A stretch of DNA of 62,507 bases, filler included, from Bonamia ostreae (GCA_040357525.1; 16 parts of 16 records of this genome joined end to end with filler, not necessarily neighbours in it); one strand, 5' to 3'; positions 3,933 through 50,000 are shown, counted from the whole stretch's first letter. Program-made: numbers and translations. Notes: generated by a model not told the origin, from the letters alone.

Positions 3933-5850
3933 CAACATTTTTGTACAAAATTTTGAAATTTCTAATAATCGAAAAGTGGTTTTATTCTGAAATATTTTAA
4001 ACTTTTTCCCAAAACACGGACATCGATGTCCAGAAAAGGACTAACACTGATATTTCTCGGATCGCTGAGCGTCAGATTCTTAAACGTAAACCGCTCGGTC
4101 CATTTCAGCCGCCGGGTCACATATTTGGACTGAATGTGTTCCGTCTTGTACACCATCCTCGTCCCTTTCACTCCCACCACGCAATGCCAGGAATAGCCCA
4201 AGTCGTCTTGGTACAGACTCCCCCTCTCCAACATCAGCGGCACCGCGTAATCCGGCTCTTTCGGCGCCGGCGTGTCCCAAACGACTTCTTTTATTTCCAC
4301 GCACAAAGAGCCTTCCGTCACAGTGCTCAATTGGCCATACTTGATCAAATCTCCGGCGGCGCGCATTTGCTCGATTTTCCTCGATTTGATTTTAAAGCTT
4401 TTGGAGCGCGGATAAATAAGTCCGGTCCAAATGGTTTTTTTGAGGAGCGGTTCGATGATTTTGGAGAGTTTGGGGACATAGCTGATTTTGATCGAGCCGG
4501 TTTTGAACGAGAGGGCGAAGTCGAATTTGGGGTAATTGAGGAAAGAGAGAGTGTAGCGAGAGAAGCCGGGGATCAAGTTTACGAAGTCGCAGAGTTTTAG
4601 AAGGACTGATCCGGAAAGGTAGATCTGTAGATAAGAACATTTTTTTGTTTTCGAAGCAATTTTTTGTTTTTTGTAGTTATTTTTTCAATACAATTTTTTG
4701 AAAGGATTTTTGTTTTTTGGAATGTTTTTTGAAGCAATTTTTGTTTTTCAATACAATTTTTTGAAGCGATTTTTGTTTTTTTGGAATGTTTTTTGAAGCA
4801 ATTTTTGTTTTTCAATACAATTTTTTGAAAGGATTTTTGTTTTTTTGGAATGTTTTTTTGCAGCAATTTTTGTTTTTCAATACAATTTTTTGAAAGGATT
4901 TTTGTTTTTTTTGAATAATTTTTGATTTACAATTTTTGTTTTTCGATACAATTTTTTGAAAGAATTTTTGTTTTTTTTTGAATAATTTTTGATTTACAAT
5001 TTTTTGAAAGGATTTTTGTTATTTAAGACGATTTTTATTGAGTAAATATTTAACAAATTCTTAAACAAAAAAACTTTTGAAAGAATAACAGTGGCTTTGA
5101 TGTTTTTGTAACCAGCAGTTAATCCAAATTTCATATCTTCCGAAACAAAAACAAATTCAATTTGCAGTGCACAATATTTTTGGTCACATTCGCTATAGTC
5201 ATGAACAATATGTCTTGAACACATATCACATTTCACTTCACATGTTTTTATACCTTTTTGTAACAAAAATTGCAATTACAATTTTTTAGAAAAAGCTAAA
5301 ATTTAGTTTGAGACCAGAAACTAATGGAGGAGAGCTTCCCAGATCGAAGACATTGACAGAAAGATGAGACAATTTTTTGTATTTATTTTTTTGTACTTCC
5401 AATTTCCAATCCAGTTTCGCTCTTATTTTTTCTTCAATCGATAATTTCAAATGTGGATTCCAAAGCACATAAATAATGTGATTTATAAATCGAGCTTTTT
5501 CGTATTCTAATTTTATTATTTTTAAAATTTTGACATATTTTATTATTTTGACAAATTTTATTATTTTGAAAATTTTAATTTTTCGACAATTTTTGTCAAA
5601 ACCGGGAAACATTAGCCATTTCGGAATATCGTTTTTGGGTGGTTTGGGGCAAGAAGATAGATAATCAATCATATTAGTCTGTGAGATTTTTTCTTAAATT
5701 TTGCAAAAAAAAACTTTTCGAATCCGTCTCCGCCAAAAATTGGTCGTACAACAAAATTAACAAAATGAGCAAAAGAAGCGTCGAAAAACCGCTATAAGCC
5801 GTGATGAAATAAACAAAAATGGAGAACAAAATTATTTTCAACGTTGCCAT
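3933..5850 (-). CDS. Extended synaptotagmin/tricalbin-like protein (N-terminal TM hairpin + SMP + C2), probably 3'-truncated
   Basis: Hydrophobic N-terminus; DIPKWLMFP..YEKARFINHII..LW, FDLGSSPPLVSGLK, SFLNYPKFDFAL and LIYPRS are SMP-like; a C2-like beta region follows. Introns 5693-5714 (22 nt) and 4625-5074 (450 nt, ILSK|IYLSG). Confidence 0.75.
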
Positions 5851-6166
5851 TTGTGTTTTGTTATTTAATAGTCTCAAATATAAAAAAGAAACTTGGAAAT
5901 TATTTTTACAATTATCTCTAGTTTTCTACAAATAAAAACGTTTTTTAGTTTCTCTAACTGGAATCTAAGCGAATTTTGCGACATTAAGCTAAATAAGTTA
6001 TTTAGCCGAATTATATGATGAATCTTTATACTAATTCTTTTTTTGTAAATCATGAGCTTTAATTTTTACAAAACTGTAAATGTGAATTTTTGAAAATATA
6101 ATTTTTAAAATTTAAGCTAAATCAAACTTTACTTTTAGTCAAATTTAGCAAACCAATTTGCAAAAA

Positions 6167-7266
6167 ATGACAGAAAAAGTTTTTTATTGATAAAATTACA
6201 AACAAAAAGAAAAAAGAGCAAACAGAAAAAGACTTTGAATACGAAAAGTTGATTTCCGACGATGAATTGGTTTACAATATCAGAATGTCAAATTTCATCA
6301 AATTCGACAAAAACCCTTTTCGTTTCAATGAAAACGGGAAAAAAGTCGATTTTGATTCAAATAAAGACGAAAACGGGAATTTTGTTTTGCGCTGGCGAAA
6401 CAATTTTAAAAATGACAAATTCTTTAAAGAAAGCAATTCTCGATTTGTAGAATGGTCAGATGGATCCAAACAACTTGTAATCGGAACAAAAGCTTTCAAT
6501 GTTTCCACGGAATCGCTTCCCAAAAAATCTTATTTGTTTTTGAGAAAGGAAAAGGACAAACACATTTTATTGAAATCGATTAGCAAACAGCTTATCGTAC
6601 AAAGCACGTTAAAAAGACTGAAACAATAATTTGCAATTTTAACTTTAAAAAGAGCAAATTTTGGCATTTTAAATTTGACTTTGAAAAGACTGAAACAATA
6701 ATTTGCAATTTTAACTTTAAAAAGAGCAAATTTTGGCANNNNNNNNNNNNNNNNNNNNNNNNNNNNNNNNNNNNNNNNNNNNNNNNNNNNNNNNNNNNNN
6801 NNNNNNNNNNNNNNNNNNNNNNNNNNNNNNNNNNNNNNTTTTAAATATAACTTTGAAAAGACTGAAACAATAATTTGCAATTTTAACTTTAAAAAAGAGC
6901 AAATTTTGGCAATTAAATAACAAAAAAGCAAAGAAACGGCATTGAAAAGATTTGTTGCTAAAGAAAAAATCGCAAAAATTGAGCCGATTGCCCCTGAAAG
7001 AGCTACAAACGAATCTGTTGATCAATTGCGAAGAGTTTTTATCAACAAAAATTACTTATTATAAAAAGAAAGAAAGTGCAAAGTTAAAAATGCAAAAACG
7101 TTTAAATGATTTGGAAACGTTGCGAGGAAAAAGTTTGGCCGAAATTGAGTTGACCAAACAGTTTTTGGAAGAAGACTTTTCCAACTCAATTTCTTCAGTT
7201 TCATCGATCGACGATTCTTCAAATTCTGACGATTTTGGAAAAAATGATGAAGCAGAATTTGATTAA
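6167..7266 (+). CDS. LEO1: PAF1 complex subunit Leo1
   Basis: ESNSRFVEWSDGSKQLVIG Leo1 motif and acidic C-terminus. Introns 6179-6209 (31 nt), 6608-6928 (repeat-filled, spans an assembly gap) and a ~34-nt intron near 7035. Confidence 0.8.
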
Positions 7267-7376
7267 ATTTTTAAAATGCACTTTTTCTAAATAAAGCGCC
7301 AAAATAATATTTGTAAAACAACGAGAAAATAAGATTTTTTTATTGTTTTCAATAACAAAATTTTGATACTTTTGAT

Positions 7377-7759
7377 TTAACAGCGATGTTTGATCCAATT
7401 TACAGTTTTCTCGAAAACAAAGTTAGCCTTCGAGTCAAAAAACAATCCATGACGTTCTTTTTTAAACAACTTCAATTCTTTATCTCCGCACTTCAAATCT
7501 TTGAAAAATTTCTTTGTGTCTTTGCTACTTGTTATCTTGTCTTTCTTTCCGTGCATAACCAAAATCGGTTTGTCCAGATTCTTTGCGAATTCTAAGTTCA
7601 TTTTGCTCGCCCACAGCAATTGCTGCGTCGTTCTCAATCGTGCGCGGCAATGATAAGTGAGTGGATACGCACTGTATTTTTAATTAGTTAAAAGAAAAGT
7701 GTTCCAAAAAATTTTAGTGACAACGACAAAACAAAATTCAACAACGAAGAAAACAACAA
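7377..7759 (-). CDS. Alpha/beta hydrolase (monoglyceride lipase/lysophospholipase-like), C-terminal part
   Basis: PILVMHGKKDKIT...DKELKLFKKERHGLF carries the catalytic Asp and His region; 5' end lost at the scaffold edge. Confidence 0.75.
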
Positions 7760-7940
7760 NNNNNNNNNNNNNNNNNNNNNNNNNNNNNNNNNNNNNNNNN
7801 NNNTTAATTAATTAANNNNNNNNNNNNNNNNNNNNNNNNNNNNNNNNNNNNNNNNNNNNAAAGATAAACGAATATGTTTAATATAAAAAAAGAAAAAGAG
7901 AATTTAAAACAACTAAAAATTTAAAATTTTTAACAAATAT

Positions 7941-8540
7941 TTATTCAATATTCGTCCACCCATTTTCGATTTTAACCGCTTTCAGCTCTTCTTTCGTAAA
8001 ATCGTTTTCGATTCCAAAACATTCTCTGATAGCTTCGACACTTTTCCCTTTTATCATTGTCGCCACTTTGGCGCAACTCAAATCCAACAAATCTCTGATG
8101 TCCAAGTAATTTGCGGCCAAAATGATTTTAAACAATGAAGACTGGTCCATTTCGATAAAATTCGCGTCCCATTCCGGGACGATCTCTCGCATGTTTTTGC
8201 TTTTTAAAGGCGTTGGAATTGGTTCGAAGGGGACATTTTTGTGATATTTTAAGAATTCGATTACTTTTTTGAGTTCGCTCGAACCGACGTTTATTAACGG
8301 AATCGCTCTTTCGGTGCGATCTTTTGAATGACCCGAATTTGACATTTGCACAAATAAAAATTTTTATTGTCGTTTTTTGGTATTTAAACCTCCTTCCCAG
8401 ATTGTTCTGATCAATGAAGATTTCATTGCGATGTCGATGTCGATCGGATGAGATTCTTCTTCTTTGCTGAGCAGATTTAGTGTTTTCTGTTCAGCGTCAT
8501 TTGCGGATTTTGGATTTTTCTCTTTGTTCGTTTTATCCAT
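7941..8540 (-). CDS. SKP1: SCF ubiquitin ligase adaptor Skp1
   Basis: IPLINV..ELKKVIEF, EWDANFI, LILAANYLDI-like, CAKVATMIKGKS, FGIENDFT. One 69-nt intron 8321-8389. Confidence 0.95.
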
Positions 8541-8629
8541 AATCGGATTTTTGCTTTTTAATATATTGGAATTTTTATGCTAATTTGAAATTTTTGTGTC
8601 GCGATTTTGCTGATTCTCCGGAACAAGAA

Positions 8630-8955
8630 ATTATTACAAATTTACGATATTTTCGATTTTTGTACGTTTTAGATAAATTTGCAATATTTTGTGATTGAAT
8701 TTACAAAATTTTGAGATTTTTGTACTCAATTTTGATAAAATTTGCAATATTTCGTGATTTTTGCGCTTGTTTTAGAAAAAATTTACGATGTTTTTGAACG
8801 TTTTAGATAAATTTGCAATATTTTGTGATTGAATTTACGAAATTTTGAGATTTTTGTACTCAATTTTGATAAAATTTGCAATATTTTGTAATTAAATTAA
8901 CGATATTTTGTGATTTAATTTACGATATTTTGTGATTAAATTTACGATATTTTCC
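8630..8955. repeat. Imperfect intergenic tandem repeat
   Basis: Repeated ttttagataaatttgcaatattttgtgattgaatttac and tttacgatattttgtgatt units. Confidence 0.75.
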
Positions 8956-8982
8956 AAAAAACTTTTTCAAATTTTAATAAAA

Positions 8983-10271
8983 TTACAAAAATTTAATAAT
9001 TCCGTCAATACTTATGCGCTCTAACGGTTCTTTGCAAAGCATTTTTTCCAAAAGCGCTCTAAATTTATCTGAAACGTCTTCTTCAGCAAAAGCAATCGGC
9101 TTATTGTTTATGTTATTAAAGACGTCATTCCTTTTTTCCGCGTCAAAAGGCGCAAAACCAAAACGCAAAACAAAAAGCAAAACTCCAAAACTCCAAACTT
9201 CAGCTTTAAACGGGCAATATTCTGGCTTCCCTGTCTCTGGAGCCATGAAATTTGGTGTTCCCGCATTATTTGATGAAAATATCGGACTTATGTTTTCAAA
9301 GCTTTCCGATATACTAAAATCAATTAACGAAATGTCTTCATTGTCGTTATTGATCAATATATTTTCTATTCATTATTATTCAAAACCTGGTTTAATGTCT
9401 CGATGAGCGACATTTTTGTCGCGCACTTTTTAATTTTCAAAATCAAAAAAAAATTTAGTAAAATAAAAATGGGCGAATTCAAACTGAAAAACAATATTTT
9501 ATGATTTCGGAAAGACATTTTGCGATTTGGAAAACGCCCTTTTCCGTAAAAGTCGATCCGTTTGAATCGAAAAGACGTTTGGCTGCAGCACTTACAGAAA
9601 ATTTGCGATCGATTTTATTCCAGTTCATTAAATGATTTTCTCCACAATAGTCCAAAACTAATAAATTTAAAGTTGTTTCGCTCTAAAATATTCATTTTGT
9701 TGCAAAAAGTCATCAAAAATGGCGATTTTAGATACAATTTTATAGCAAAATTTTATAAAAATGGAGATTTTAATTAGAAAAAATTTATAAAGAATTATCA
9801 AAAATGGCGATTTAGATTAACATTTATTGCAAAATTTTATAAAAAATGGCGATTTCTAAAGAATATAAACCCAAAATCATTTCGTCGTTACTCTTTAAAA
9901 TTTCGTGCAAAGAAACAATATTTTTGTGCTTTAAAGAAGAAATAATTTTGGCTTCGTTGACAATTTTATCTCTTTTTCGGACATGTTTCATTTGCTTTTG
10001 TCCCTTTGAATTCTCTTCTAAACGAATATTTACAACTTTATCGACTTCGTATTGAGGATAAACTTTGAGCGCAAATTTTTTGCTGTTTTTCGTGGCCAGA
10101 TAAACTTTTGTCGTGGATCCACGACTAATCTTTATTTAAATTTAGTAAAAATGCTGTTTTGAAATTTAGTCAATTAAAATTTAGAACCAATTTTACCTTT
10201 TTAACTAATTTGTATTCATTGTAATAATGACCCCAACACGTTTTTGATTCAACCAAATTATAAATTTCCAT
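8983..10271 (-). CDS. Ser/Thr protein kinase, CAMKK/GRIK-like
   Basis: ISRGSTTKVY, FALK, LKHKNIV, HRDIKP|ENIL (21-nt intron 9366-9386), DFSIS, AGTPNFMAPE, EVWSFGV, ERI. Also a 213-nt intron 9658-9870. Confidence 0.85.
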
Positions 10272-10461
10272 TTTAAGCTTTTTAAAGCTTTTAAATTATA
10301 ATAATATATTGGGTACTGTTAATAAACAGCGAGAAAAGAAGTTGCATTATTAAATTACTAAAAAATCAATTTTGGGACATTTTAAATAATAAATTTAAAC
10401 GTTAAACAAAAATAATATAACCAATTTGTTGTTTAGACGAAAATAATTTATTTAGCCGAAA

Positions 10462-11686
10462 ATGACCGCAATTTTTTTAAAATTTTGCAATAATAACTTT
10501 AATAAACTACAAAAAATTTGCAGATTTCGCCGCTCATTCTCAACTGTCCACCCCCTTTTGGCCATTTCCCCTATAGACGGTCGTTACCGCAACAAAACAG
10601 AAAAATTATCAAAAATATTTAGCGAATTTGGATTAATAAGAAATAGGTTCACTTTCAAAATTTTAAAAAGAGTTTTCACCGAAATCAAATGGATTAAAAA
10701 ACTTTCGACTCTTTCTAAAACAAACGAACAAATTCCGGTTTTAAGCAAAAATGGCGAAAACGAGCTAAAAAATATTGCGGAAAATTTTAGTCTGAAAGAT
10801 GCGGAAGAAGTTAAATTGATCGAGACTAAAATAAAACATGACGTTAAAGCAGTCGAATATTATTTGCGGAACAAGTTTTGCAAATCGGAGTTTTTAAAGC
10901 CTTTTGACCAATATATTCATCTGTTTTGCACATCGGAAGATATAACGAATGTGTCTTATGCTTTGTCGTTAAAAGAAAGCAGAGAAATTTTGATTGATAG
11001 AAAATCAGTGATTTTGGCCCAATTGGAAGAAATGGCATTTAAAGTATAAAATTTTTGTGATTGAATTTTATTTAAAAACGATTTTTTGAGATTGAAATAT
11101 TTTATTTTTACGATTTTTTGTTATTGAAATATTTTTTTTATTTTTTGAAAAAACGCTTTTTTGTGATTGAATTTTTTTATTTTTTGAAAAAATAATCTTA
11201 TTATCTTCAAAAATGAGTACAAAGATTTAGCAATGATATCTAGAACACACGGACAAGCCGCCAGCCCGACAACACTCGGAAAAGAAATTGCTGTTTTTGC
11301 AAATAGATTAAACAAACAATTATCGATTTTCAAAAAAATTCCGATTTCGGCTAAATTTAACGGTTTAACCAATTATGGCTAAATTTTACTAATTTGTTAT
11401 TTAAAAAAGGCGCTGTCGGTAATTTCAACGCACATCGTTTATCAATGCCAAATGTTGATTGGATAAATTTTACAAAAGAATTTATTGAAGTTTTATACAA
11501 AAAAGCTAAATTTTAAATGAATTTTTACGAAAAAGCTAAATTTGATTAAAAACTATTTAAAAAAGAACGATTTGGAATTAAACTGTACTTATCTGACAAC
11601 ACAAATAGAAGTTTTTGCTAAATTTTAATAATAAAAATTAGCCAAATGACATGGTTTCGGTTTATTTGGACTGCTTGAAACGATTT
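10462..11686 (+). CDS. ADSL: Adenylosuccinate lyase (E. coli/plant PurB-type), 3'-truncated
   Basis: ISPIDGRY, HDVKAVEYYL, CTSEDI, RTHGQAASPTTLGKE, GAVGNFNAH, TTQIE|PND. Introns include 10647-10670, 11044-11217 and 11611-11641. Confidence 0.95.
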
Positions 11687-11786
11687 NNNNNNNNNNNNNN
11701 NNNNNNNNNNNNNNNNNNNNNNNNNNNNNNTTAATTAATTAANNNNNNNNNNNNNNNNNNNNNNNNNNNNNNNNNNNNNNNNNNNN

Positions 11787-12579
11787 TCGACTGTCGGCTA
11801 AATTTTTATTCAAATTTTGGTGTTAAAAGTTGTGACAATATTTTTATTTTTGGCAAATTTTGAAAAAAATAAAGACATTATCGTTGTTAATAAAAAGCGA
11901 ATTGGCGGTTTCCGCAACTTTTTTAACATAATTTTGCCGGCGCTCCATTCTCAGCCTCGAAAACCGCACTGCGGATTGCCCTCCGCGGCCATGTTTTTTC
12001 GGCAAATCGACACTGAATTTGTGTATAACGGTTTGAGTGCTGCCACAGAGAGTGCCGTAAAGACAACCGTTTCCGTCCATTATTATGAAGCCAAAAGTGT
12101 TTTCCTCTTCCAACAGTTGGTGAAGTGCTTCCGTGTGGAACTTGTTGTCGCAAAGGTAAAGAGACGTGTTGATCGGTTTAAATGGCTCAAAATCGAGATT
12201 GAATTTTTTTTCTTTGTCGTCCTCGTTTAAGATCGTGCCGCAATACAGAATCAATCCATTTGGCGGCACTTTGCTGTAATTTTTCAATATCTGTATCGCC
12301 GAAGTGATCGCTGAAAGAACGGACAGTCGATTTACGCGGGATTTGATGTTCGACGCTGTTCCGTATTCATCGCTATTTTTCGTTAGAATTGGTGGTTTCG
12401 AAACCTTAGAAGTTTGCTTACTCTGGGAATTTGATCTTTCGGCGGTATTATTAAAGATATCATGCTGGTTCCGTTGCTTTTAATTATTTGTTTTACCCTT
12501 TCGCGTTTGTGAGGTCTTTGATCATCTTTTTGACCTTCCATTGTTCGACCAACCGTTCGCTGTCAAAGTTTTTAACCAT
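11787..12579 (-). CDS. eRF1: Eukaryotic peptide chain release factor 1, 3'-truncated
   Basis: After removing introns 12477-12496 (20 nt) and 12373-12404 (32 nt): [41 protein letters not shown]. Confidence 0.97.
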
Positions 12580-12685
12580 ATTAGAGCTTTAACTATTAAA
12601 TTTTTTCAATATAATGTAAAGTCTAATTTTGCAGATTTGGAATTTTTGTTGTGTAGAATGTGTGTTAAAAATTAGAATTTGAACT

Positions 12686-24462: not shown

Positions 24463-25164
24463 ATGGAATATATTAAAACACTACTATCAGCTTTTTTTAT
24501 TTTCTTACAATTGTGTTTGATGTCGTTCTCTTTCATTTTTCCTTATTGGGCGAAATCTTCGAATATTAAATATTTTAATCAAAATGAACATATAATGCAC
24601 ACTGGAATAAATAGTTACACTGTTCAACAAAAAGGGCTAAATTTATTTTTTAAAAATCAAATCTTTTACGATTCCAGAGAAACCAACTTCAACTTGTTAT
24701 GCACTTCAAACTGTAAAAACGTTTTTAATTGTTACAAAATATGAAAATATTATAAACAAAATCGATCTTCAATAAAATTAACATTTTTATAAAAATTGCA
24801 ACAATAAAATTAACATTTTTCAAAAAAATGACAATAAAATTACCATTTTATAAAAATTGTAACAATATAGTTTGGATATGGAACACTAATAGCCTCGTCA
24901 ATTCTTTTTTACTCAATTTGTACGACCTTTTTAATGATTTTTGTTGTAATCGCTTCGAAGATAATAAAAAACCCTTTTTTAAAGAAAGTGTTCAAAATTG
25001 GTTCAGCGTTTATTGCAATTTTAATGATTGGAATGGTGCTCATTTATTTCTTCTTCGCTTTTAAGAATTTGCCGAATGAATATGAAAATCAATTGAGCTA
25101 CTCATTTTACGTTGTTGTCGCTGCTGTTGTTTGTGTAGCTGTTAATCCTTTCATCCCGTTGTAA
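24463..25164 (+). CDS. Small four-TM membrane protein (claudin/PMP22-like topology)
   Basis: TM1-PYW..HTG..C..C loop, then three further hydrophobic segments after a repeat-containing intron. Confidence 0.45.
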
Positions 25165-25645
25165 ATTTTTGGCTTAATTTTCTTTTCCAGGATTTAACAT
25201 TTAAATAATATTTATCAGATTCTCCATTTTTATTCTTTTAAGTTTTATTTTATCCATTTTTAAGTGTAATTTAAATATTTAATTTTTATTTGCTTTATAA
25301 AATAACCTTTTGTTTTTCTCAAAGTAAAATAAATTAATTTTTTTTCTGGTGAAAATAGTAAAAATAGTTTTATTTTTAAAAATAGTTTGCACCTTCTTCT
25401 ATTTATTTAGCTTCTTCAAACAGCAAATTTTGCGCCGAAAAAGAAAATTTATTTAAAAACAGCAAATTTTGCGCCGAAAAAGTAAAATTAAAAAAAATTT
25501 AGAAAAAGTCCAAATTTGTTTTGATAAAAATTTGCTTATTATTAAAAGTCCAATTTCATCAAAACAAAAAGAATTATATTCTTTTGAAAGCGTATATTGA
25601 AATCCCATAATAGAAACTAATCGTTTAGAAAAATTGTATTTGGAA

Positions 25646-28229: not shown

Positions 28230-28485
28230 TCAATTTTTTATTTTATACTAAACGGTTAATATTTTAAAGCTTGTATCAGCTTTTTTTATATAGAAATATA
28301 TGAGTTTAGTTAAAATGTCTAAATTTAGAATTTTTAAATCTTCAAAAGCAACTTTTTCAAATTTTAATATAGCATTACAACAATTTTTATATTTTTGCCA
28401 AAGAAAAAGAAAAAGAAAAAATTTTTTGTAATCGAAAAAATCATTTTTTTTTGAATTTTAAAATTTTGAAACATTACAAATCAAT

Positions 28486-28886
28486 TTATTTGCCACGGTA
28501 CCCCGCTCTCATCCCCATATTTCTCGAATCTCCAGCCATCAAACTCATGCTTCTCCCCATTCCAATCGTATTGCCTTTTGTAAAATTACAAAATTTGAAC
28601 TGTCGTTGGTCATTTTATTTTCAATCCGCTTGAAAACAGGGGCGTTTTTCAACATGTCCGGAATTATGATGAGTTTAATGAAAGAGCCCCGAATGTACAC
28701 TTTCGAACGCTTTTTGACTTGACCGTCATGAGCGGTGTATGTGACGTTGATCAGTTCTATGTTCATGCAATCTTCGACATTGCTGAGTTGTCCGCGATAG
28801 CACTCGTACGTTTTCATCTCGACAGTGGCAATGTAGCCTTCGGCTTCGTGCAGTATTTTAATGGGAACTCCGATGTAAACAGGCAT
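28486..28886 (-). CDS. SMD3: Small nuclear ribonucleoprotein Sm D3
   Basis: IGVPIKILHEAEG, YRGQL..EDCMN, VYIRGS..IIPDMLKNAPVF; a 26-nt intron precedes the G/R-rich tail. Confidence 0.95.
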
Positions 28887-29236
28887 TGCACAAAAATTAA
28901 AATTTAGTTTCGTTTAAATTGTTTTTCAAAGTTTAAGCCGGTTTTGCTAATTTGACATTTAGTCGAATTTAGTCGATAATGGCTTTATGCCTTCGTTGAT
29001 TTAAAGTTTTTGTGGTTTGAAAATAAAAGTTTGCGAAGATTTAAAAATTCGCTTTCGCCGTAAAATCTCTGAAAGTTAGATTTTTTGTGCATGGCGATGT
29101 GAAATTGCTTGTTAGAACTAGTTGGTTAAGCTCAACATTATTTGAAGTTTAACTTTTTGGGATATAAGATTTTCAGATTAAAGCTCGAAAAGTTTTATCT
29201 TTTCTGAAGAATAGATTAAATTGAATTAAAAAATTA

Positions 29237-29572
29237 ATGCGTGGAACTGAGATTATAATAGTGATATTTCTTTTCGTGCTAACAATTGAATCCGAAAACA
29301 GTGTTCAGAATTTGAATACGCCGATAAACATTAATATTTTGGGGAGTCGAAATCTGTCTCAATGCGTCGACAATATTTCTTTTGTTTTGGGAAGAAAGGT
29401 CGATTTGAAGAAAGACGAGCGTGTTTTTTTGGATTGCTGCGAAAACGCTTGTACGGAAGAAAAGGAATATCTCCACATCGATTTTGAACTAACGCACGTT
29501 TTTTATGTTCCGCGGTTTGGATTTGATAATGACGAAATTGACAAATATTGGGTAGAATGTTTTTGTAAATAA
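29237..29572 (+). CDS. Hypothetical small secreted protein
   Basis: ATG, hydrophobic N-terminus and several Cys; may have further exons. Confidence 0.4.
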   Translation: MRGTEIIIVIFLFVLTIESENSVQNLNTPININILGSRNLSQCVDNISFVLGRKVDLKKDERVFLDCCENACTEEKEYLHIDFELTHVFYVPRFGFDNDEIDKYWVECFCK

Positions 29573-29705
29573 ATGTTTTTTGGTATTTTGTTTCTGTTTT
29601 GATAACTTAATGATTGATCAAAATTGCGTAGAAGGCAAATCTTATTAAATGAAAATATCGTCTAAAACAGATGTTTAAATTATCATACCGTTTATTGATC
29701 AGATT

Positions 29706-29918
29706 TCATAAAGAAGTTATTGTCTCTTCAAAGATTTCGAATTGGCCGTCTTCGTTGTTTGATAAACTATTCGTTCTATTTTGCAAGTTTTGAGTAATCG
29801 TTTTTTCACTACAAAAAATATTCTTCAGAAATTTGATAAAGAAGATTAAAGTCAAAATAGCGCAAATTGACGATAAAACGACATTTGAAATTGAGATAAA
29901 CGGATGATTTAATAGCAT
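29706..29918 (-). CDS. Small single-TM protein, paralogue A
   Basis: 70-aa ORF homologous to 30654-30887. Confidence 0.55.
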   Translation of the reverse strand: MLLNHPFISISNVVLSSICAILTLIFFIKFLKNIFCSEKTITQNLQNRTNSLSNNEDGQFEIFEETITSL

Positions 29919-30653
29919 TGAAATTATATTTTTTGTTTATTTTACCGTTTATTTTAACAATCTACTCACGAAAAGAATTAGCAAATACAAAAAAAATTAT
30001 ATTGCAAAAGCCAAACGAAAACGAATATTGCCGTGCGAAGTGAAAGGAAAACGAAACAAAGACAGCGTAGATGTAAACAAGACTATTTGGTACAAATAAA
30101 TGGCCATTCATTTCATATACACCAANNNNNNNNNNNNNNNNNNNNNNNNNNNNNNNNNNNNNNNNNNNNNNNNNNNNNNNNNNNNNNNNNNNNNNNNNNN
30201 NNNNNNNNNNNNNNNNNNNNNNNNNTCCACTAAAATTTTCAAACAAAAACAATGGGAAATTTTGACTTATTCAAACAGATCAAGATAAAGACGATGATCA
30301 ATGAATCCTGAATAGATTATTATCCCAAAAGTTATTTAAACATCTTTCTATCTACTTCCAACTACAACATAAGACGAAACCTCAATTTATTTCAAATTTA
30401 AACAGAAGTCTTCGAAACATAACTATCTTTATTTGACATAGATGCGCTTCCAAAAAATACATTCTGTAAAAGCCACTCTCCAGTAAGAAGCCGGTATAAA
30501 CACGCAAAAGACTTCAGTAGTCAAAGAAGAGCTAGTAGATTTGGTACAATGTCATCAAAAATATTTTCACAAGTATTGAATCAATATTTTTAAAAATTTT
30601 ATAGTATCAATTTTGTTATTTTAAAAATATTATTTATAAAGATTTAATAATCT

Positions 30654-30887
30654 TCACATCTGAGAATGTGATGATTGTTCTGGAGCATCATTTATTTCAA
30701 AGATTTCGAACGATTCGTATTCGTTGTTTGATGCTCTGTTCGTCCTATTTTGCAAGTTTTGGATAACCATTTTTTTGCTACAACAAATATCCTTCACAAA
30801 TTTGATGAGCAAGATTAAAGCCAAAATAACGCAAATTGACGATAAAACGACATTTGAAATTGAGATAAACGGATGATTCAATAGCAT
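30654..30887 (-). CDS. Small single-TM protein, paralogue B
   Basis: 77-aa ORF; first 19 aa and ~25 nt of upstream sequence match paralogue A. Confidence 0.55.
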   Translation of the reverse strand: MLLNHPFISISNVVLSSICVILALILLIKFVKDICCSKKMVIQNLQNRTNRASNNEYESFEIFEINDAPEQSSHSQM

Positions 30888-31385
30888 TGAAATTATATTT
30901 TTTGTTTATTTTTGCAGTTTTTAATAAAATGGTAAATTTCGATATGTCACATTAATAATATTCTTTATCTTGCCATATCTTTTTATATTTTTTGTAACTT
31001 TTTTGTTAAAATTTGCTAAATTACTAAAAAATTTTGAGAGAGAAGCAAATGATTTTTATCCGGGAAGTACTTTTAGTTTTACGTTTATTAAGTTGTCGAA
31101 CATTTCCAAACTAATTTTTCTCTTTCTTGTTGGTGATTTTTGATTTTTCTAATTCTTTCTGTATTTAAGTCATCTTGTTTATCGTCTTCAATCTGTAAAA
31201 ATATTAAGTTTTTTCGTGACTATCTTTTACAATCTACAGGAAAGTCTTCATTTGTCTCTCTCAATACATTTTAAGTGTTGTCATANNNNNNNNNNNNNNN
31301 NNNNNNNNNNNNNNNNNNNNNNNNNNNNNTTAATTAATTAANNNNNNNNNNNNNNNNNNNNNNNNNNNNNNNNNNNNNNNNNNNN

Positions 31386-32351
31386 ATGGTAGTTGCGACA
31401 ATTAATTTAGTTTTCAGCCTTTCTCTCTATTTCATTTCAATCTTGTTCGCGACAATTAAAATTTGCCGGAAAACCCATCAAAAATCTTTAAAAACAAGCA
31501 AAAAACATTCTAACCGACAGCATTTTCTAATTTTGTGCACTACCTATTCGGTTTCGATAACAATTCTTTACTTTCTCGATTTTTACAATGTAATTTCTGG
31601 AATTCTCCCGATTTTTTTGAGTTCGAGCACTGTAACAATAAGTTTGTATTTGATTTTGTTGTTTCTCGATGTAGTCTCAATGTATGATGATCGCTTGAAA
31701 TGCAATTTTTATGTGGAAAAAGGGATTTATGTTGCTTTTTTTCTGATAATAATCGTTGCAAACTATTTGATTTGTAAAAAAGAAAATTTTGTTATTGTTG
31801 TAATGGCAGTTACTTTGTTGATTTCAGAAATATTTCTATGTTTAAATTTGATTCTTATTTTTTACAATTTGTTTCAGACTAGAAGAGAATATCTAATTGA
31901 CGATTTTAACGTTTTTTTTAACGATTTTAACGTTGTTTAAGACTTTTTTGACGTTTTTAGTTATTTTTGTGGCGCTTTTTTGCTTTTTTTAGTTAACCTC
32001 GCACCGTCTTTTTTTTACTTTTACGACATTTATCATTTTTTCGGTTAATTTTTTCTTCCGTGTTGGCATTTTTACATGTTTTTTTGTCATTTTTGTTTTA
32101 CCTTTAAATAAAAACAGGGAGACAGAGATTCATTCGTTATCGATTTTTTGCCGCAAACATCTTTTTTCTTTATCGAAACATCTGGAACTTTTGGAGTGAT
32201 TTTAAACCGCATTTCTGGTAAATTTGAAGACACAAAAACGTTAATAATTGCTGTTGTGCTTTTTACGCCATTTTTGAATTCTCTTGCGCTTTCCATCGTC
32301 TTCCGGTTGTACAAAATGAGATTGTGTTCGAAGGATTCTGGAATTAAATAA
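31386..32351 (+). CDS. Multi-pass membrane protein of unknown function
   Basis: Series of hydrophobic helices in ORFs 31386-31940 and 32148-32351, separated by a T-rich intron-like stretch. Confidence 0.5.
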
Positions 32352-32482
32352 TCTTGTATTTTGACATTGAACGTTCAAATTATTAAAAAATCTACAAAAT
32401 TTTTGAATAAGTACATTATTGATTTTTTCGACAGAATATGTACAAATCACGCAAATATTGATTTAATCAAAAGCGCACAACT

Positions 32483-35197
32483 CTAAATTCGAACCAGAAA
32501 TGTCAAAAAGAGGAGAAAACCGTTAATAAACAAGCACATAAAATGATCAAAAAGATATTTCGGTTGAAAAACCTCTTTGACGACGATATGTTTTCTTTTG
32601 AAAAACAGATTTACAGCTGAAAAGAGTATTTTCGATTGGTTAAAAAAGATTAACAACAAAAATGCTTTTTCAAACGCCATTTTTGTCCATTTCTTCCGCC
32701 TTTTTTTTGAAACCGTCAAACCAAACAAAGCAGTAATCTTTATCAAAACAAAAATGGAAGTCAAACAAAGCGCAAATACAAAATAAGTACGCAAAAACAC
32801 GAACAACTTTGATGTGAAATTGAATCCGAACAAATAAAATGCAAATCGAAACTAAAAGTTTTAAAATAAAAACGTCAATCGAACTAATCAAATAGTCGTT
32901 TCCAGACAAAACATAAAACAAATTTCCCAACAAATAGAAGTACCAAATGATCAATTCCAAACAAAATTTTGTTTTTATGGGGCTTCTGTCAAAATTGCGA
33001 ATGCCAAAATTTTTGAATTCGAATGCCAAAATTGCGATATTGACTAATAAAATGAACAGAAATGGCAAAATAAAAGAACTGTAAAGAATCAAAGAAAACG
33101 TCAAAATTCCAATAAAAAATTGTTTTAGTGCGCCTTTCATAACAGAACGCAAAACTGAAACGAAAACAGAGAAAATAACGACAGAATTGAAACAGTATAA
33201 AAAGGTTTTTGGCAAAGTTTCAAAATTCGAGACGTTTAGAATCCAAAACAAAGACACTTCGCAGATCTGCGCTAAAATAATAGAATGGTCGCAAAAACTG
33301 TTTTTTTGCAGTTTTGTAAAAGAATGGAGGATAGACAATGTGATTGTTGTTAGCAGAAATGATGATTTGATCGGATTGTAAATTTCGGTTTCTTTTGAAA
33401 ATTGAAAGAAATGGGCTGACAACAAAGCGCACAAAATTATAATGAAGTTTGCTCTTTTTGTTAAAACAAAAAATGTTAAAACAAATAATTAAAAATTGTT
33501 ATTAAAAATGTTGAAACAAATATTTAAAAATTGTTATTAAAAATGTTTGAAAAACTTGTTATTTGAATTTAAAACAAAAATAAAAAAAGAGACAATAATC
33601 AAAATAGCAAAAATCCAATATTTTTCATAAAGGATTTGGTAGTAAGCGATCGGCGTCCAATTGAAGAAAATAAAAGTTAACAAAACTGCAATTTTTCTCA
33701 CCGAACAAAAATTTTTCTTTGGTTTTATTAAACTCTCATTGAAAATCAGATTTTTTCTTAAAAGAAAAATAAGTTTTTGAATATTGTCGGCAAAATAAGA
33801 TGTTAAAAGAGTAAAGACAATTTTTGTGCATTGTGTTGGTAGCAATAAAACAAAAGAAATAATGGCCATTATTGTCGAACATTGAAAATTAATGTTTTTG
33901 TTGGTACAATATAAATCGAGAAGTAACAAAAGAGACAAAAACGTCGTCATTGAAATTACAAACAGTCCTTTACAGATTTTTAAGTAATCAAAATCAATCC
34001 AGTTTTTAAGAGAGATATCTCTTAATTTTCTTAATAGCAAATCATATTCTTCGTTTAATTGTTTAAATTTCGTCTATATTTTATAAGAATTTTAATTATT
34101 TGAAAAATTGATTTTAACTATTAAAAATTGTTTTTAAAAATTTGTTGTTTATAAAAAATGTAATTTTTGCGAAAAATAATGTTAAAATCAATTTGTCGAT
34201 AAAAATGTGATAAATTAAAAACTTTATTTTGGTCATTTTTAAGCAAAAACAAATGCTTTTTCTGCAACAAATAAAAGTTTTCAAGCTCTATCTTCAATAA
34301 ATTTCGTATTTTTATATTTTTTACGTTAATTTGCAAATTTCTGAAAATTTGAAGATTGTTTTTTAATAAATATTTGGCCATTTCCTTTTCACGAAAATCT
34401 TGCGAACTGGTTTTTTCGCTTTTAATTGGAACCAGTTCTCGGATGATGTTCCCGACATTTTCAAAGGGAATCGGTACATTCACTAAAATTGCCATTGTCG
34501 GAGCCAAACTTGTCTGATTATAAGTTTTTGACTTTTGATTCTCTTCTTCGAAACAAAGATCTTTTGAAACATGAGCAAACAGAAAAGCATCTTTTTCTTT
34601 ATCAGAGTCGCCGCCATGGTTGCCGCTTTCAAGCATCCCGTGATCGGAAAAAACGACCATTATTGTTTTGTTCATCTTGTCTACCTTTTCCGCCATTTTC
34701 GCACATGTCGCGTTAAATTTTTTCAAAATTTCCTCCATCTTCGGATGGTTCGCTTTTAGACTTTTTTGTTACAAGAAACAGTTACCTGTGACCGACATGA
34801 TCTGCTCCCAAATAATGAGCGAATAGAACATCCCAGTCTTCTTTAGCCCATTCTTCGTCGATGTGTGAATCTATTCCCTCGTCATTTGAATAGATGTCAA
34901 TTGGGTTGAGAGAGGGATAGAAATAGCTTCTCACAAAAGCGTTTGGGAACATTCCTTCCCAAATAAAGTCGCCCAAAAAAATTGATTTTTTGTTTGATTG
35001 TGCAAACTGTTTGAGCAAATTGTCTTCGTTGATTTCTGTTCCTCCAAAGTTTTCTCTGAACTCTATGTAACCAGGGATGCTTCCCGTCATCAACGCCTTT
35101 ATGCGTTGGTTTGTGACGGTTGGAATGTCAGAGACAAATCTGAATAACTTTGAGCGTTTTGTGTTTTTTGACAAATTATCGAAAACAGTCAGGATAT
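32483..35197 (-). CDS. PIGO: GPI ethanolamine phosphate transferase 3 (PIG-O/Gpi13), 5'-truncated
   Basis: SDIPTVTNQRIKALMTGSIP, EDNL, FLGD..W, HYLGADHVGH, DHGM..GNHGG, PIPFENVG, many TM helices, and RKHIVVKEVFQPKYLF. Confidence 0.85.
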
Positions 35198-35350
35198 NNN
35201 NNNNNNNNNNNNNNNNNNNNNNNNNNNNNNNNNNNNNNNNNTTAATTAATTAANNNNNNNNNNNNNNNNNNNNNNNNNNNNNNNNNNNNNNNNNNNNAAG
35301 TCGAAAGATATAAATATTTTGTGAAAGCAAATTTGTCCCAAAACGTACAA

Positions 35351-35728
35351 TTATGGTTTACTGCGCTTTTTCTTTGAGTCTGGAAACTCTTTGGTGAGCC
35401 AACGGATGAATCCAAGCCTCCTCGGCTTGCTGAATTCGTTGCGGTGTTCGTTATATATTTTAACTTTCTCTGGCATTTCTTCCATTGCGGCTGCGATTTG
35501 GGCTTGTCTCTTCAAAAATCTCTCCTTGCGCTTCTCGATATTCAAAGATGGAAGGTCTTTTCGCAACAACTGAGGCAGAGGCTTTTCAAATGGCCAAATC
35601 AAGCCTTTCCGAAGAATCGTTTTTCTGAACCGCGCAAGTCTGGCTCCGGAAAAATTAGCTCTAATGTAGATCTTCCCGTCGGGAGTTCTTCTCCTCATTA
35701 TATCCGGTATTTTGAAAGTCCGAACCAT
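35351..35728 (-). CDS. Probable mitochondrial large-subunit ribosomal protein mL59 (MRPL25-like)
   Basis: Basic 125-aa ORF with FSGARLARFRK..W and RQAQIAAAMEEMPEKVKIY. Confidence 0.6.
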   Translation of the reverse strand: MVRTFKIPDIMRRRTPDGKIYIRANFSGARLARFRKTILRKGLIWPFEKPLPQLLRKDLPSLNIEKRKERFLKRQAQIAAAMEEMPEKVKIYNEHRNEFSKPRRLGFIRWLTKEFPDSKKKRSKP

Positions 35729-35793
35729 TTTAAAATTTAGTCTTTTATTTATTTTAAAATTTTTGACTAAATTTGGCTTCTTTTCGCCAATTA

Positions 35794-36909
35794 ATGAATC
35801 AAGTTTGTTTTGTTGACCAAACAGGCCATTTTAGAAGTGATCGCTGCGGAGAGAAAAAGGCGAAAGAAAAAAGAAAAAGATCGCAGCCAAAAGAAAGTTT
35901 TAAATTTAGAATTTCAAAAATTCTGCAAAAAGGCGAAAACGGAAACCGAAAATTGTGCAAAATCGGAATCCAAATCGCCAAACTCAAAAAGCCACAACGA
36001 AGAAAATCGGTTCTATCCTCAAAACTCAAAATTTAGCAAGATTTCCCAAAACTCAAAATACCGCAACTCGAACTATGTCATCAACAGGTTGCGAGAAATG
36101 GAAGAGCCGATCAAGCTCTTCGACGAATCGGACTTAAATCGCATAAAAAGACTAAAAATAGCAGAGCTTAATTTACATGTTTATTATATCCAAAAACGAA
36201 AAGGAAAAGAAAACGTCTTCGAAGGGCATCAGAAACGTCTTCAGAGACATCCAAGAGGTCATTAGACACTTAATTGCTACACAATAAATTAAAGCTCTAT
36301 TACCTAAATCCGATTTACCATTTTAATGTTTAGAAAGTCGAAATGAACATGCACAAAGAAAAATCTGTTTCCGGCAAAAAGAAGCGCGTCCCCGCTTTTG
36401 TCCACAAAAAGCCGACCGCGCACCGCGCAAATTTTGACTGCGCCGAATTCTTCATTCTCGCCTTTTTCAAGCAACTCCTCGCTGAATGGGAGGACGATCT
36501 GGAGCAAAGACCAATGGAAGAAAAACGATCCCGCGAAGGAAAGCACCAGTCCGCGATCTATCTGCAGACGGCCGAGTACCTCCGCCCGTTCTTCGAACAA
36601 CTGGCGAATCGCGAGTGCGCGGCCGACATTTCAGAGCCGGTCGAACGAATCGTAATGTTGATGCAACAACGAGAATATGTCATGGCGAACAACGAGTACC
36701 TCACCATGTCGATCGGCAACGCGCCGTGGCCCATGGGCCTCACCATGGTCAGCATCCACGAGCGCAAAAGTCGATCCAAAATTTACTCGAACCAAATCGC
36801 GCACATTTTGAACGACGAGGAAACCAGAAAGTACATCCAATGCATCAAAAGACTGATGACCTTTTGCCAGGAACGCTATCCCCCGGACACCGCCGACAAG
36901 AAATTTTAA
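35794..36909 (+). CDS. PRP18: Pre-mRNA splicing factor Prp18
   Basis: SFM motif VINRLREMEEPIKLFDES; SIGNAPWPMGLTMVSIHERKSRSKI; AHILNDEETRKYIQCIKRLMTFCQERYP. First intron 35803-35824. Confidence 0.95.
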
Positions 36910-36944
36910 CTTTGCGCCTGTCCCTTCTATTTTTTGTGTCACTA

Positions 36945-46135: not shown

Positions 46136-47025
46136 TTTAATCATTTTTACTCTTAAAATTTAAATTTATTACATTTAAATAAAAAAATTGCTCAATTGTT
46201 TCTTTTTCTTTACTTAAAGAAAATAGTAATAAATAAAATCTATTGCAATGAAATAATTTATAAAACAAAAAACTTGATCTAGCAACTAAAATAAAGTAAA
46301 ATTGTATTTTGTTTTAAAGTAATAAAGTATAGATTTAAGTAAAAAACAATATTCTCTAAAAGATTAATAAATAAATTAAAGTGTGAAATATCTTAACCTT
46401 TGATATGTGGCGATATAATAATGATATAATAAATAAAACAATAAAATGAAAAATCTATGATGCAAATGAAAATATTGAATAAAGGTTGTGACAATGTTAC
46501 ATGGTAATATATAAAAAAAACAAAGCATACTTTGGGAATTAGATACCCTTTATAGAGTTCATACGTTAATCCATTCCGAAACCACTCCCATAATAACTTA
46601 CAAATGCATTTCAAAATAACACAGAAATTTAATTCGAAGTGATTTCAGGAGTTGTCAAAATTACGACTAGATGGTAAGGCCAATCAATGCGATAGAAAAA
46701 TAACAAATGAAGTCATATAGGAAGCGGAACCAAATTAAATCTACCTAACCACTATTAAATAACGTAGATATGTTGCCAAATAAAATTTTGATTCTATACT
46801 AACCGAAAAAGCTAATTTGTGCGCATAGTTGTTTTCTATATAAAACTATTTTACCAATAAATTGTATGGGCACTAATACAAGCTCACTTTCTAAGGATGA
46901 TTTGATTGATCTTCAAAACAACGAANNNNNNNNNNNNNNNNNNNNNNNNNNNNNNNNNNNNNNNNNNNNTTAATTAATTAANNNNNNNNNNNNNNNNNNN
47001 NNNNNNNNNNNNNNNNNNNNNNNNN

Positions 47026-50000
47026 TTTATTGCAACAATGGGCAAAATTTTATAAAAATCTGGATTTTATCAATTGAAATAACAATCATTAATTCCAAAG
47101 AAAAGCTCAGAAAAAACAGTTGACAAAAATATTATTTTCGTCAATTACAACGAGTTTCACAAAGAATGCGATTTTCAGTACGAACCCCTCGTCAAAGAAC
47201 GTCTTCGTCATTGGGCAAGCTTTGAAAGGGGTTCTGAAAACTTGTGGGCGTTTAAAGGCAACAAAGATGTGCTCAACCGTTCGTTCGTTGAGACGGTCTC
47301 TTCCCCGGACGACGCGTGCGTCATCGAATCGATGAGAATCGCTGAACAGCGATTGCACGATTTGGGAATAACTGATTTGTATTCCATTAGTTTCGAGACT
47401 CTCAAGCGCATCAACAACGGAACAAACGATTCTCTCAAACAGATCGCCAAATTTATTGCTCGTGAATTAAAGGACACTCCTTGGCATAAAACTTCCGTCT
47501 TCAACCAGGCCAGAATGCGCCGATGTTTCCTGCAAACGCGAAATCCAAACGGGACTTTAATTAACGGAGATTTTGGGTTCAAACTGAAAAGAGAGCGAAG
47601 TAGGAAAAACAACAGCGAAAAATGTTTAAAATTGATTTTTAGTGTTGGCTAGAAAGAAAATGATAAAGAGGAAAAGTGATGACGAAGATTTGAGAAAAAT
47701 CAGCAAAAACGACGCTGTCAAAGTGCTCCGAAAAATGGGCGTTCAACCAAATGATCTGGTCGCAATGACAAGATGGGATTTAGTCTCTTTGATCAAAGAA
47801 CTCTCAACGGAAGACGACGAGTTCGCCAAATATTCAAGAGCGCATTTGGATAAAAAGGTTTATTCCGCCATTTTCATCAATTGCGATAGAGCGAATATGC
47901 AAAGAATCTCAATAGAATATTTTCAGAACATCTCCGTTTTCTTCAAAACAAGAGTTCAACTCAGAAAGCCGCGCGGGAACTCGACGAAATGTTCGGAGAA
48001 ACCGGTTTTAAAGGACAAAGCGATGTGGTCGAAACCGACGAAGAAGAGTCGGCTTTGGCCGAGAAAGTCGTTGAGTCGTTGATGAAAGGCGAAGACTTTA
48101 AGAGCGAAAATCTGTCGGAGAATCAAAAGTTGGGAAATGCAAAATCGATCGGAAAGAACGGGAAAAGATACAAACGAGTTTTAAAGAAACGAATAATTTT
48201 GACCATTTGCCGGCCAGTTCCGGGGAGAGACCCTGTTTCAAATTTAATTTCAAGTTTGTTGAAGTCATAACGGACAGAGACAAAATATTGTCATATTTGG
48301 ATTCGAAAAGAGCCGAGCGTCAAAAAGAGTTGGAATCTCTGCCGCATCACGAGAAAATGCAAAAGAAGGAAGAAATTGAGAAAATCAGAGTGGAACAGGT
48401 TTAATGTAAAATTTTTGAAATAATGCGATGTAACCAAATTTTTGCAAAAAGTAAATGTAAAATATAAAAGTTGAAAAAATTGGAATTGAACCGAAAAAAC
48501 GATTTGGAGAAAGAACGAAAAGCGATCGAAAGAAGCATAACAAATTCTCATATCCGTTGCACTGAATGTGGAATGCGTGGTCATATAAAAACAAATAGAT
48601 CGCTTTGTCTTAAATATTTATCCAATGTGGAAGAAGAAAAGAGTAATTCTGTAGAACCTTCGCTCGGTTTTATCCTTTTTGATATTGGATTTTCCCCATT
48701 TTAAAAAGATCCAATTTAACCATTTTATAAAAAAACGATTATTTTTATCAATTAAATAATCGATAAAAATCTCAAATTCCAGACTAAAATTAAATTGAAC
48801 AAAATTTTAAAGTCGACAATTCAAGCGGCGACACAATAAGAATAAACACCGCAAAGGTAACTAAAGCCGTTTCAGTAACAAAAGTTTCTCACATAAAAAA
48901 TTTAGAAAAAAGGGAAAAAACGACATATCGATTTACTAAATGCCATCGACGAAGGAGTTGATTTGAGAAACCAGCGAGATCCTTGCATCGAATTTCGAAA
49001 TATTTTGGTCGCGATCTTGGACCGCACTAGAAAAGCATTACCGATTGAGGCTGCGCTGTTCGCAGAATCGATTCCGAGAGAAAACTCGACATATCATTCT
49101 GTTGTAACAAATCCAATGAGTCTCTCCGATATTAAAAAGAGAGCGGAAAATTCTTCTCGCCCGTACTCAAGAAACGAAGAGGGAAAGCGGCGGCGCGAGA
49201 AAGGATTGGAGATTCGCTACACGTCCGCGGAGGAATTTTTACGGGACGTCGAACTTATTTTTAGAAACGCGTTGCTCTATTTCGGGCCCAGAGCGGAAAA
49301 CCGCAACTCCGAAAGGGCTTATCGCTTAGTCAATTTTATCAAAAAAGCTCTCATTCCCGTTTTATTAATCGATTTTTAATTTGGTCTAAAGCATTTAGAG
49401 ACGATTTCAGAGTTGTCGGCTGAGATTCACGAAGCGGAAAAGGAGCAAAAGCTATTGGACAGACTTAAAATTGTTGTAGAAACTATGATTGCTTCCAAAT
49501 ATTCCTTCTATTTTAAACAAAGCCCTCTTTCAGTCTTTATTATTTAATGAAGCATGCTATTTTTGTATTTTGTATGGAGAAATCGATTTAACAAATTTTC
49601 GTTGGCAATTTATAAGAATATAATTTGTTGGCAAATTATTGTACATCAATGTTGTAAAAATAATGATCAAATAGTAATTTTGATGAAATAATGGCCCTTA
49701 TTAAAAATATTGTGCCTAAAATTTACGAAAATTGTAAATTAAAAATAGAACAAGTTTTCGCTCATTCTTAAAAAAAACAGTTACCGAACTACAAAGAGAT
49801 AATTAAAACACCGATGCACTTGGACCTAATAAAAAGCAAAATAGACGAATGTCGATACGCTGACGTGAGGGAATTCACTGATGATTGCCAACTGATCGCC
49901 CAAAACGCAAGGGCTTACAATAAAAACTTTCCTTCCGCAATCGAGTCCGTGGAAAATCTAATGGCAGTGGGACAAGCTGCTTTGGAAAAGGTTGCGCTTA

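Follow-up and report, generated by a model that had tools for sequence, protein, structure and literature searches.

Genes in a stretch of 62,507 nucleotides from the flat-oyster parasite Bonamia ostreae (Haplosporida, Ascetosporea, Rhizaria), hereafter the window, were found to be interrupted by what are very probably genuine U2-type GT-AG spliceosomal introns, ranging in length from a class of 19-32 nt to 182 nt or more and bearing a re-tuned, lineage-specific 5' splice site, GUUU, whose mode of recognition we infer below. Short and long introns alike proved to be spliceosomal GT-AG introns with this GUUU consensus. The U2-type assignment was examined through the termini, the transcripts and the encoded proteins: GT and AG formed the 5' and 3' ends of all 22 introns considered, eight introns within 11787-15612 were present in DNA and absent from RNA, and splicing restored continuous homologous proteins for eRF1, a protein kinase, adenylosuccinate lyase (ADSL), a protein with an RGS domain and acetyl-CoA carboxylase (ACC). 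U12-type introns carry the 5' site [AG]TATCCTT and the branch site TCCTTAAC; none of the 22 donors started with GTATCC or ATATCC. The introns did not form a uniform ultrashort class either, in which nearly all lengths would lie within 1-4 nt, as the supported ones spanned 20-182 nt. A first-pass annotation of the same DNA had proposed ultrashort spliceosomal introns in a reduced protist, and this proposal was borne out by RNA contigs, homology and reading frames.

The window had a G+C content of 30% and was a composite of 16 scaffolds, separate from one another and ordered by decreasing size (3832 down to 3792 bases), with N44-TTAATTAATTAA-N44 linkers between them at 3833-3932, 7760-7859 and onward up to 58616-58715, spaced ~3.9 kb apart. 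The published B. ostreae assembly, very probably the one to which these scaffolds belong, is described in Table 1 of its report as fragmented, with an N50 of 1417 bp and 33.3% G+C (PMC11069148). Since the scaffolds are merely joined, synteny across the linkers is meaningless and genes are cut at the ends of the pieces; the occurrence of short introns on separate scaffolds also makes the pattern a genome-wide property rather than that of a single locus. The span 5693-48254, which had been presented as one feature, therefore has no unity of its own, as it crosses 12 unrelated linker-joined scaffolds.

All 14 stretches listed in the first-pass annotation had GT..AG ends on one strand at their coordinates, eight on the plus strand and six on the minus strand (5693, 9366, 12373, 12477, 37793 and 41145). 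Their sizes had been given as 19-36 nt; the lengths were measured as 19-32 nt. The donors began with GTT in 13/14 and with GTTT in 11/14, and the acceptors were AAG in eight, CAG in three and TAG in three. Half of these introns (7/14) had independent support, four from RNA contigs and three from homology across the junction, and the other seven were without it. Among the latter, the evidence for four (5693, 41145, 47624 and 48235) was frame restoration alone, and two (6179 and 35803) depended on first exons of four and three codons. It had also been stated that proteins were restored only by removing very short introns; the same genes in fact carry introns of 79-182 nt as well.

Read evidence covered one scaffold, 11787-15612, and bore out eight of the 22 introns; it was drawn from run X4 (RNA contigs) and runs X1 and X2 (DNA). 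Seven GT-AG stretches of 20-109 nt were missing from the X4 contigs and kept in the DNA runs X1/X2, and an eighth intron of 79 nt was given by an X4 loose end. These eight are listed below, where "annotated" marks those present in the first-pass annotation and "new" those absent from it.

12477-12496, minus strand: eRF1 intron, 20 nt, GTAAAA..AAAAG, annotated; missing from the X4 contig, kept in X1/X2; restores the eRF1 N-terminus.
12373-12404, minus strand: eRF1 intron, 32 nt, GTTTCG..CTAAC..ATAG, annotated; X4 joint 12372>12405 (CT..AC on the plus strand), not in the DNA runs; restores the eRF1 sequence.
11798-11876, minus strand: eRF1 intron, 79 nt, GTCTTT..TTTAG, new; X4 loose end at 11877 continues into the 11 bases 11787-11797, before the linker.
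13319-13346, plus strand: intron, 28 nt, GTTTTG..GAAG, new; skipped in the X4 contig, kept in DNA; GT-AG in one of seven equivalent placements.
13406-13425, plus strand: intron, 20 nt, GTTTAA..AAAAG, annotated; skipped in the X4 contig, kept in DNA.
14108-14133, minus strand: intron, 26 nt, GTTTGT..TTTAG, new; skipped in the X4 contig, kept in DNA.
14327-14435, plus strand: intron, 109 nt, GTTTTA..GAAAG, new; X4 joint 14326>14436 in three contigs and in no DNA run.
14758-14779, plus strand: intron, 22 nt, GTTTCC..TAAAG, annotated; X4 loose ends at 14757 and 14779, each reading the opposite exon; kept in the DNA runs.

Missing stretches of this kind could also arise from strain indels, from assembly errors in the RNA contigs or from DNA segments removed from the genome, and two cases on this scaffold fit such an origin. 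A 73-nt skip at 13915-13987, with CG..TT ends and direct-repeat flanks, occurred in the RNA contig and in DNA run X2 as well, and is therefore an indel polymorphism between isolates and not an intron. The X4 joint 12805-12983 (depth 4.1, GT..AG ends) skips 179 nt inside a ~180-nt tandem duplication; it is probably a repeat collapse and was excluded from all counts. All the other skips, however, were GT-AG-ended, were missing from both DNA runs as skips, and restored frames and conserved motifs. Hence there is next to no likelihood that the short stretches are anything other than spliceosomal introns.

Exact spliced mapping of the public B. ostreae protein P0133 from NCBI defined four long introns of the ACC gene. 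An ACC exon matched the NCBI entry "hypothetical protein MHBO_001620, partial [Bonamia ostreae]" with 99% identity, and the 983-aa MHBO_001620 protein aligned to the window at 100% over residues 1-385 and at 99.5% over two further blocks.

60189-60279, plus strand: ACC intron, 91 nt, GTTTTT..AAAAAG.
60448-60543, plus strand: ACC intron, 96 nt, GTTTTT..ACAAAG.
60931-61112, plus strand: ACC intron, 182 nt, GTTTGT..TAAAAG.
61673-61772, plus strand: ACC intron, 100 nt, GTTTTT..CTAAC..TAAAAG.

The 182-nt intron consists of approximately three tandem copies of a ~60-nt unit, which points to internal duplication as a way in which some long introns lengthen. The starts of the other three (60189-60236, 60448-60485 and 61673-61715) could each be read as a plausible GTTT..CAG intron of 38-48 nt, in one case with TACTAAC right before the CAG, and these inner CAG sites may be alternative or nested 3' sites.

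The remaining ten introns, all annotated, were examined through homology or reading frame.

9366-9386, minus strand: protein kinase intron, 21 nt, GTTTTG..ATAG; restores HRDIKP/ENILI; the downstream exon begins at position 127 of the Pkinase profile, and the read-through has three stops.
10647-10670, plus strand: ADSL intron, 24 nt, GTTCAC..AAAAG; equals an exact 8-residue insertion of the unspliced open reading frame (ORF) against solved ADSL chains, in 2/2 alignments shown.
37793-37812, minus strand: intron of the RGS-domain gene, 20 nt, GTTTTT..TGCAG; RGS profile positions 4-64 lie upstream, and 66-110 downstream from residue 1.
41145-41164, minus strand: intron after a PHD finger, 20 nt, GTTTGC..TGCAG; links open frames of 345 + 141 codons; recovered by the signal-free gene model.
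47624-47642, plus strand: candidate intron of the TAF1-like gene, 19 nt, GTTTAA..TTTAG; links open frames of 180 + 145 codons; one of three frame-compatible candidates.
48235-48254, plus strand: second candidate intron of the TAF1-like gene, 20 nt, GTTTCA..TCAAG; frame restoration only, 115 + 49 codons.
5693-5714, minus strand: candidate intron, 22 nt, GTTTTT..TTAAG; the sole 15-45-nt GT..AG candidate linking frames of 70 + 134 codons.
6179-6209, plus strand: weak Leo1 candidate intron, 31 nt; depends only on an ATG at 6167 and a 4-codon first exon; the Leo1 domain starts at ORF residue 35.
35803-35824, plus strand: weak PRP18 candidate intron, 22 nt; the 3-codon first exon, with its ATG at 35794, continues in frame.
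14922-14942, plus strand: candidate intron, 21 nt; frame only; X4 depth appears to run out close to the donor.

The motif split by the intron at 9366-9386 is the catalytic loop of protein kinases. The length of the ADSL intron is a multiple of three, and its read-through is without a stop. In the TAF1-like gene, a DUF3591 domain lies upstream of 47624-47642 and bromodomains (48906-49376) lie downstream on the same strand. The public model P0253 (183 aa, 47101-47649, plus strand) continues straight across the candidate 19-nt intron and terminates two codons beyond it; a search of representative sequences returned only this unspliced 183-aa model, and the public annotation appears to break up the TAF1-like gene. 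For the PRP18 candidate, alternative acceptors at 35834 and 35837 also fit some frames. At 14922-14942, no skip was present among the X4 contigs, X4 depth was 0 in the bins 14987-15242 that cover the proposed downstream exon, and when read unspliced, the RNA-supported frame ended at a TAA two codons past the donor, inside the proposed intron. Pfam and PDB searches gave no match for the exons around 14922, 47624, 48235 and 41145, nor for the PRP18 N-terminus.

Splice-signal statistics were computed on two sets. The independent set comprised the 12 introns fixed without regard to motif, by X4 contigs (eight) or by spliced mapping of P0133 (four), with lengths of 20, 20, 22, 26, 28, 32, 79, 91, 96, 100, 109 and 182 nt; the all-intron set added the ten annotated introns outside it, giving 22 introns, 16 short and six long. 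A GTTT donor was found in 10/12 independent introns, against a background of 0.236 over all 5255 GT in the window (p=2.2e-5), which upholds the earlier statement that the GTT(T) donor exceeds the AT-rich background. On the acceptor side, AAAG ended 8/12 independent introns (background 0.219, p=0.0011) and AAG 9/12 (background 0.433, p=0.027). In the whole set of 22, T occupied position +3 in 20 and position +4 in 19, and position +5 was T in 11, A in four, G in four and C in three, so that no conserved +5 G was present. At -3, A occurred in 14, T in five, C in three and G in none; the 3' end is thus HAG, with A favoured at -3/-4. Positions -5 to -12 of the 22 introns held a mixture of A and T, and the polypyrimidine tract, whose absence had been noted in the first-pass annotation, was indeed lacking. 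The GTTT donor was common to the introns of 79-182 nt, and it is therefore a trait of the splice sites of this organism and not of tiny introns.

It could be argued that these biases reflect the AT-rich background together with the choice of examples, with nothing beyond GT..AG. The background itself is skewed, with GTT making up 0.461 of the GT and AAG 0.433 of the AG in the window, a crude ORF-bridging filter gave no enrichment, and AAG was not enriched among the annotated introns outside the independent set. The GTTT excess nevertheless appeared in introns fixed by RNA or by a public protein, and it reappeared in gene models that were given only GT and AG as signals, in which the donor was GTT in 35/48 (against 0.461, p=1.5e-4) and GTTT in 27/47 (against 0.236, p=6.7e-7). 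These ab initio models had a weak coding signal and merged genes, and were used only to check the donor bias. The ORF-bridging filter, tried with clustering of ORF pairs as an enrichment test, was dominated by false alternatives around each junction; it gave 259 clusters in 62 kb with many alternative frames, and was rejected as too noisy. An explanation by background and selection is accordingly extremely unlikely. The donor bias is solid, and the acceptor bias is real but modest.

Several observations weigh against the reading of these stretches as U2-type introns with a re-tuned GUUU donor, or against its generality. The independent set is small, with its 12 introns coming from 2/16 scaffolds, and two of them start with GTAA and GTCT. 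The RNA status of X4 was only a guess; it was accepted here because depth ranged from 0 to 149,000 across the stretch and because the GT-AG-only deletions were absent from DNA. One 79-nt X4 contig retained 14758-14779 unspliced. The AAG acceptor reached just 14/22 over all introns (p=0.044), a weak bias; among the ten annotated introns outside the independent set, AAG was found in five (background 0.433, p=0.45). The ab initio models recovered just 5/12 supported introns, and any histogram of intron lengths drawn from them would be untrustworthy.

The first-pass annotation had further described a reversed compositional polarity along the introns. The two halves of the 16 short introns did differ in composition, the first being T-rich and the second A-rich (Fisher p=0.015), but the difference was gone when positions +3, +4, -3 and -4 were left out (p=0.88). 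The polarity is two short end motifs and not a feature of the intron body. From these ends it had been suggested that base pairing may link the U-rich start of the intron to its A-rich 3' end and so juxtapose the sites; such a small helix would replace protein-mediated recognition of the 3' site. GUUU is complementary in register to AAAG (U2-U4 with A-2 to A-4), and compared with shuffles of the intron interior, the short introns had a slightly longer best end helix (4.38 versus 3.73, P=0.0125) and a slightly lower mean folding energy (-0.91 versus -0.40 kcal/mol, P=0.010). Swapping the 3' halves among the 16 short introns, however, gave the same or more pairing, both in register (2.44 observed versus 2.56 swapped, P=0.84) and for the best end helix (4.38 versus 4.34, P=0.48), so that covariation between the ends was lacking. 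The predicted fold was 0 kcal/mol in 9/16 short introns, which thus have no predicted structure; introns that end in CAG or TAG, or start with GTAA, are spliced; and the same end motifs occur in introns of 79-182 nt, whose sites a 3-bp A-U helix could hardly bring together. End pairing as the means of site recognition is thus very unlikely, and in the mechanism proposed here pairing between the intron ends would have no specific role.

A typical branch point is an adenosine in a yUnAy context. The branch-like motif yTRAy was present in 13/22 introns, whereas shuffles gave 6.9 +/- 2.1 (P=0.0045). All six long introns had it, 12-38 nt from the 3' end; nine short introns were without it. The first-pass annotation had also suggested a rewired recognition of the 3' splice site; the enrichment of this putative branch motif would argue for ordinary branch recognition. 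The terminal AG was the sole AG in 14/16 short introns, and in the other two an earlier AG ended at position 9 or 12, so in the short class the 3' site appears to be whichever AG comes first once at least ~19 nt from the donor have been passed. Lengths divisible by three were found in 3/16 short introns, two of them with in-frame stops and one (10647) without.

How the GUUU site would be read can be outlined conditionally. Canonical U2-type signals are GTRAGT at the 5' site and YAG at the 3' site; the 5' site is complementary to the 5' end of U1 snRNA, canonically ACUUACCUG, and to the ACAGAGA box of U6. Against that U1 end, the GUUU donor would mismatch at +3, +4 and +5, from which we infer either an altered U1 or a site specified chiefly by U6, U5 and Prp8. 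The donor might accordingly be read by a co-evolved U1 or chiefly by these other components. At the 3' end, the AG would be chosen by its closeness to the branch and not through U2AF bound to a pyrimidine tract. An Rfam search of the window gave no snRNA match at the gathering score and none at E<=0.1, and the window held no gene for the 3' splice-site factors U2AF and SF1. A gene for PRP18, a second-step splicing factor (35798-36906, plus strand), and one for a protein with an LSM/Sm fold (28548-28913, minus strand) both appear intact, and at least these parts of the spliceosome appear to be retained. In mikrocytids, only U2, U4 and U6 were found among the snRNAs according to the available text of the report (PMC10245619), which makes the option of U6, U5 and Prp8 plausible.

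A bolder proposal, which we consider possible but hold only tentatively, would be that in B. ostreae, and perhaps in haplosporidians generally, the 5' site has been re-coded from GURAGU to GUUU(U), with U1 either altered accordingly at its 5' end or bypassed. Under this proposal the species would represent a living intermediate between ordinary rhizarian and mikrocytid splicing, and the class of 19-32 nt would have been missed by the public annotation.

The genes of the window were nuclear eukaryotic housekeeping genes in the standard code: PABP, HAT1, a PHD protein, ACC, Leo1, a kinase, ADSL, eRF1, PRP18, an RGS protein, a TAF1-like protein, Vps36, Skp1, TUTase, a GCP subunit, an LSM protein and LYAR. 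A variant genetic code was considered and found unnecessary, as eRF1 has the standard NIKS motif and splicing restores standard-code frames. The evolutionary rates of these housekeeping genes are very uneven: the PABP-like protein (21975-23162, plus strand) gave four RRM matches and only ~27% identity to its best homologues, and eRF1 shared 76-79% identity with animal and algal homologues. A gene of no recognised family at 14210-14928 (plus strand) reached an RNA contig depth of up to ~149,000, with neighbours at tens to thousands, and its transcript is possibly among the most abundant of the parasite.

An intron-rich organism whose donor is a strong GUUU, and whose introns have neither a +5 G nor a pyrimidine tract, would provide a natural test of how much 5'-site recognition by U1 and U6 can drift, and B. 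ostreae stands close to the mikrocytids, where reduction of the spliceosome went furthest. The species is also a major oyster pathogen. If standard pipelines skip introns of 19-32 nt, its gene catalogue contains truncated models and inferences of gene loss are affected, the 183-aa fragment of the TAF1-like gene, with its candidate 19-nt intron, being one case of truncation. Should the donor be re-coded and the short class have been missed, a sizeable share of the published protein sequences would be cut short or shifted in frame.

Compared with canonical U2-type sites, the B. ostreae introns share the GT-AG termini, a branch-like yTRAy and the avoidance of G at -3, whereas they have U in place of a purine at +3, G at +5 in just 4/22, A over C/T at -3, and no pyrimidine tract. 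To our knowledge, nearly all surveyed eukaryotes have kept the purine at donor position +3. Very short introns are known elsewhere, with 15-16 nt in heterotrich ciliates and 18-21 nt in nucleomorphs. According to its genome paper, B. ostreae "carries canonical introns", on average 2 in each mRNA (PMC11069148); the main text of that paper, as far as available, makes no mention of introns of 19-32 nt or of a GTTT donor, and its additional files may hold intron statistics. In the literature searched, no description of haplosporidian intron length or of a GTTT donor was found; that search extended neither to supplementary files nor to Fig. 3 of PMC10245619 nor to articles on haplosporidian actin genes under subscription, any of which may bear on the point.

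The mikrocytids Mikrocytos mackini and Paramikrocytos canceri belong to the same class, Ascetosporea, of rhizarian parasites of invertebrates, and their introns likewise stand at the short extreme with conserved sequence. The available text of their report gives lengths of 16 or 17 nt (217 and 7 of 224), with introns that are few and confined to some gene classes (PMC10245619). In contrast, the introns of B. ostreae measure 19-182 nt and occur several per gene, including in the metabolic genes ADSL and ACC, a comparison made by length and gene class and not by consensus letters. The reduced spliceosome of mikrocytids would fit an altered reading of the donor in B. ostreae. Other lineages with short introns and weak signals include Paramecium, the Bigelowiella nucleomorph and dicyemids (PMC2483917), and myxobolid myxozoans and Dicyema japonicum (PMC13644364). 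In what these sources make available, B. ostreae resembles such lineages in having introns of ~19-30 nt, no polypyrimidine tract, A upstream of AG and a high intron density. The lineages differ in that their 5' site is GT(A) or "GTa", their branch signal is not clear and their lengths are narrow, and short-intron lineages usually lose the information at +3, as in GT(A) (PMC2483917, PMC13644364); B. ostreae has T at +3 in 20/22 and at +4 in 19/22, an enriched yTRAy and a broad range of lengths. Set beside these systems, the tiny introns of B. ostreae fit a known trend in reduced parasites, and the unusual part is the GUUU donor across all length classes.

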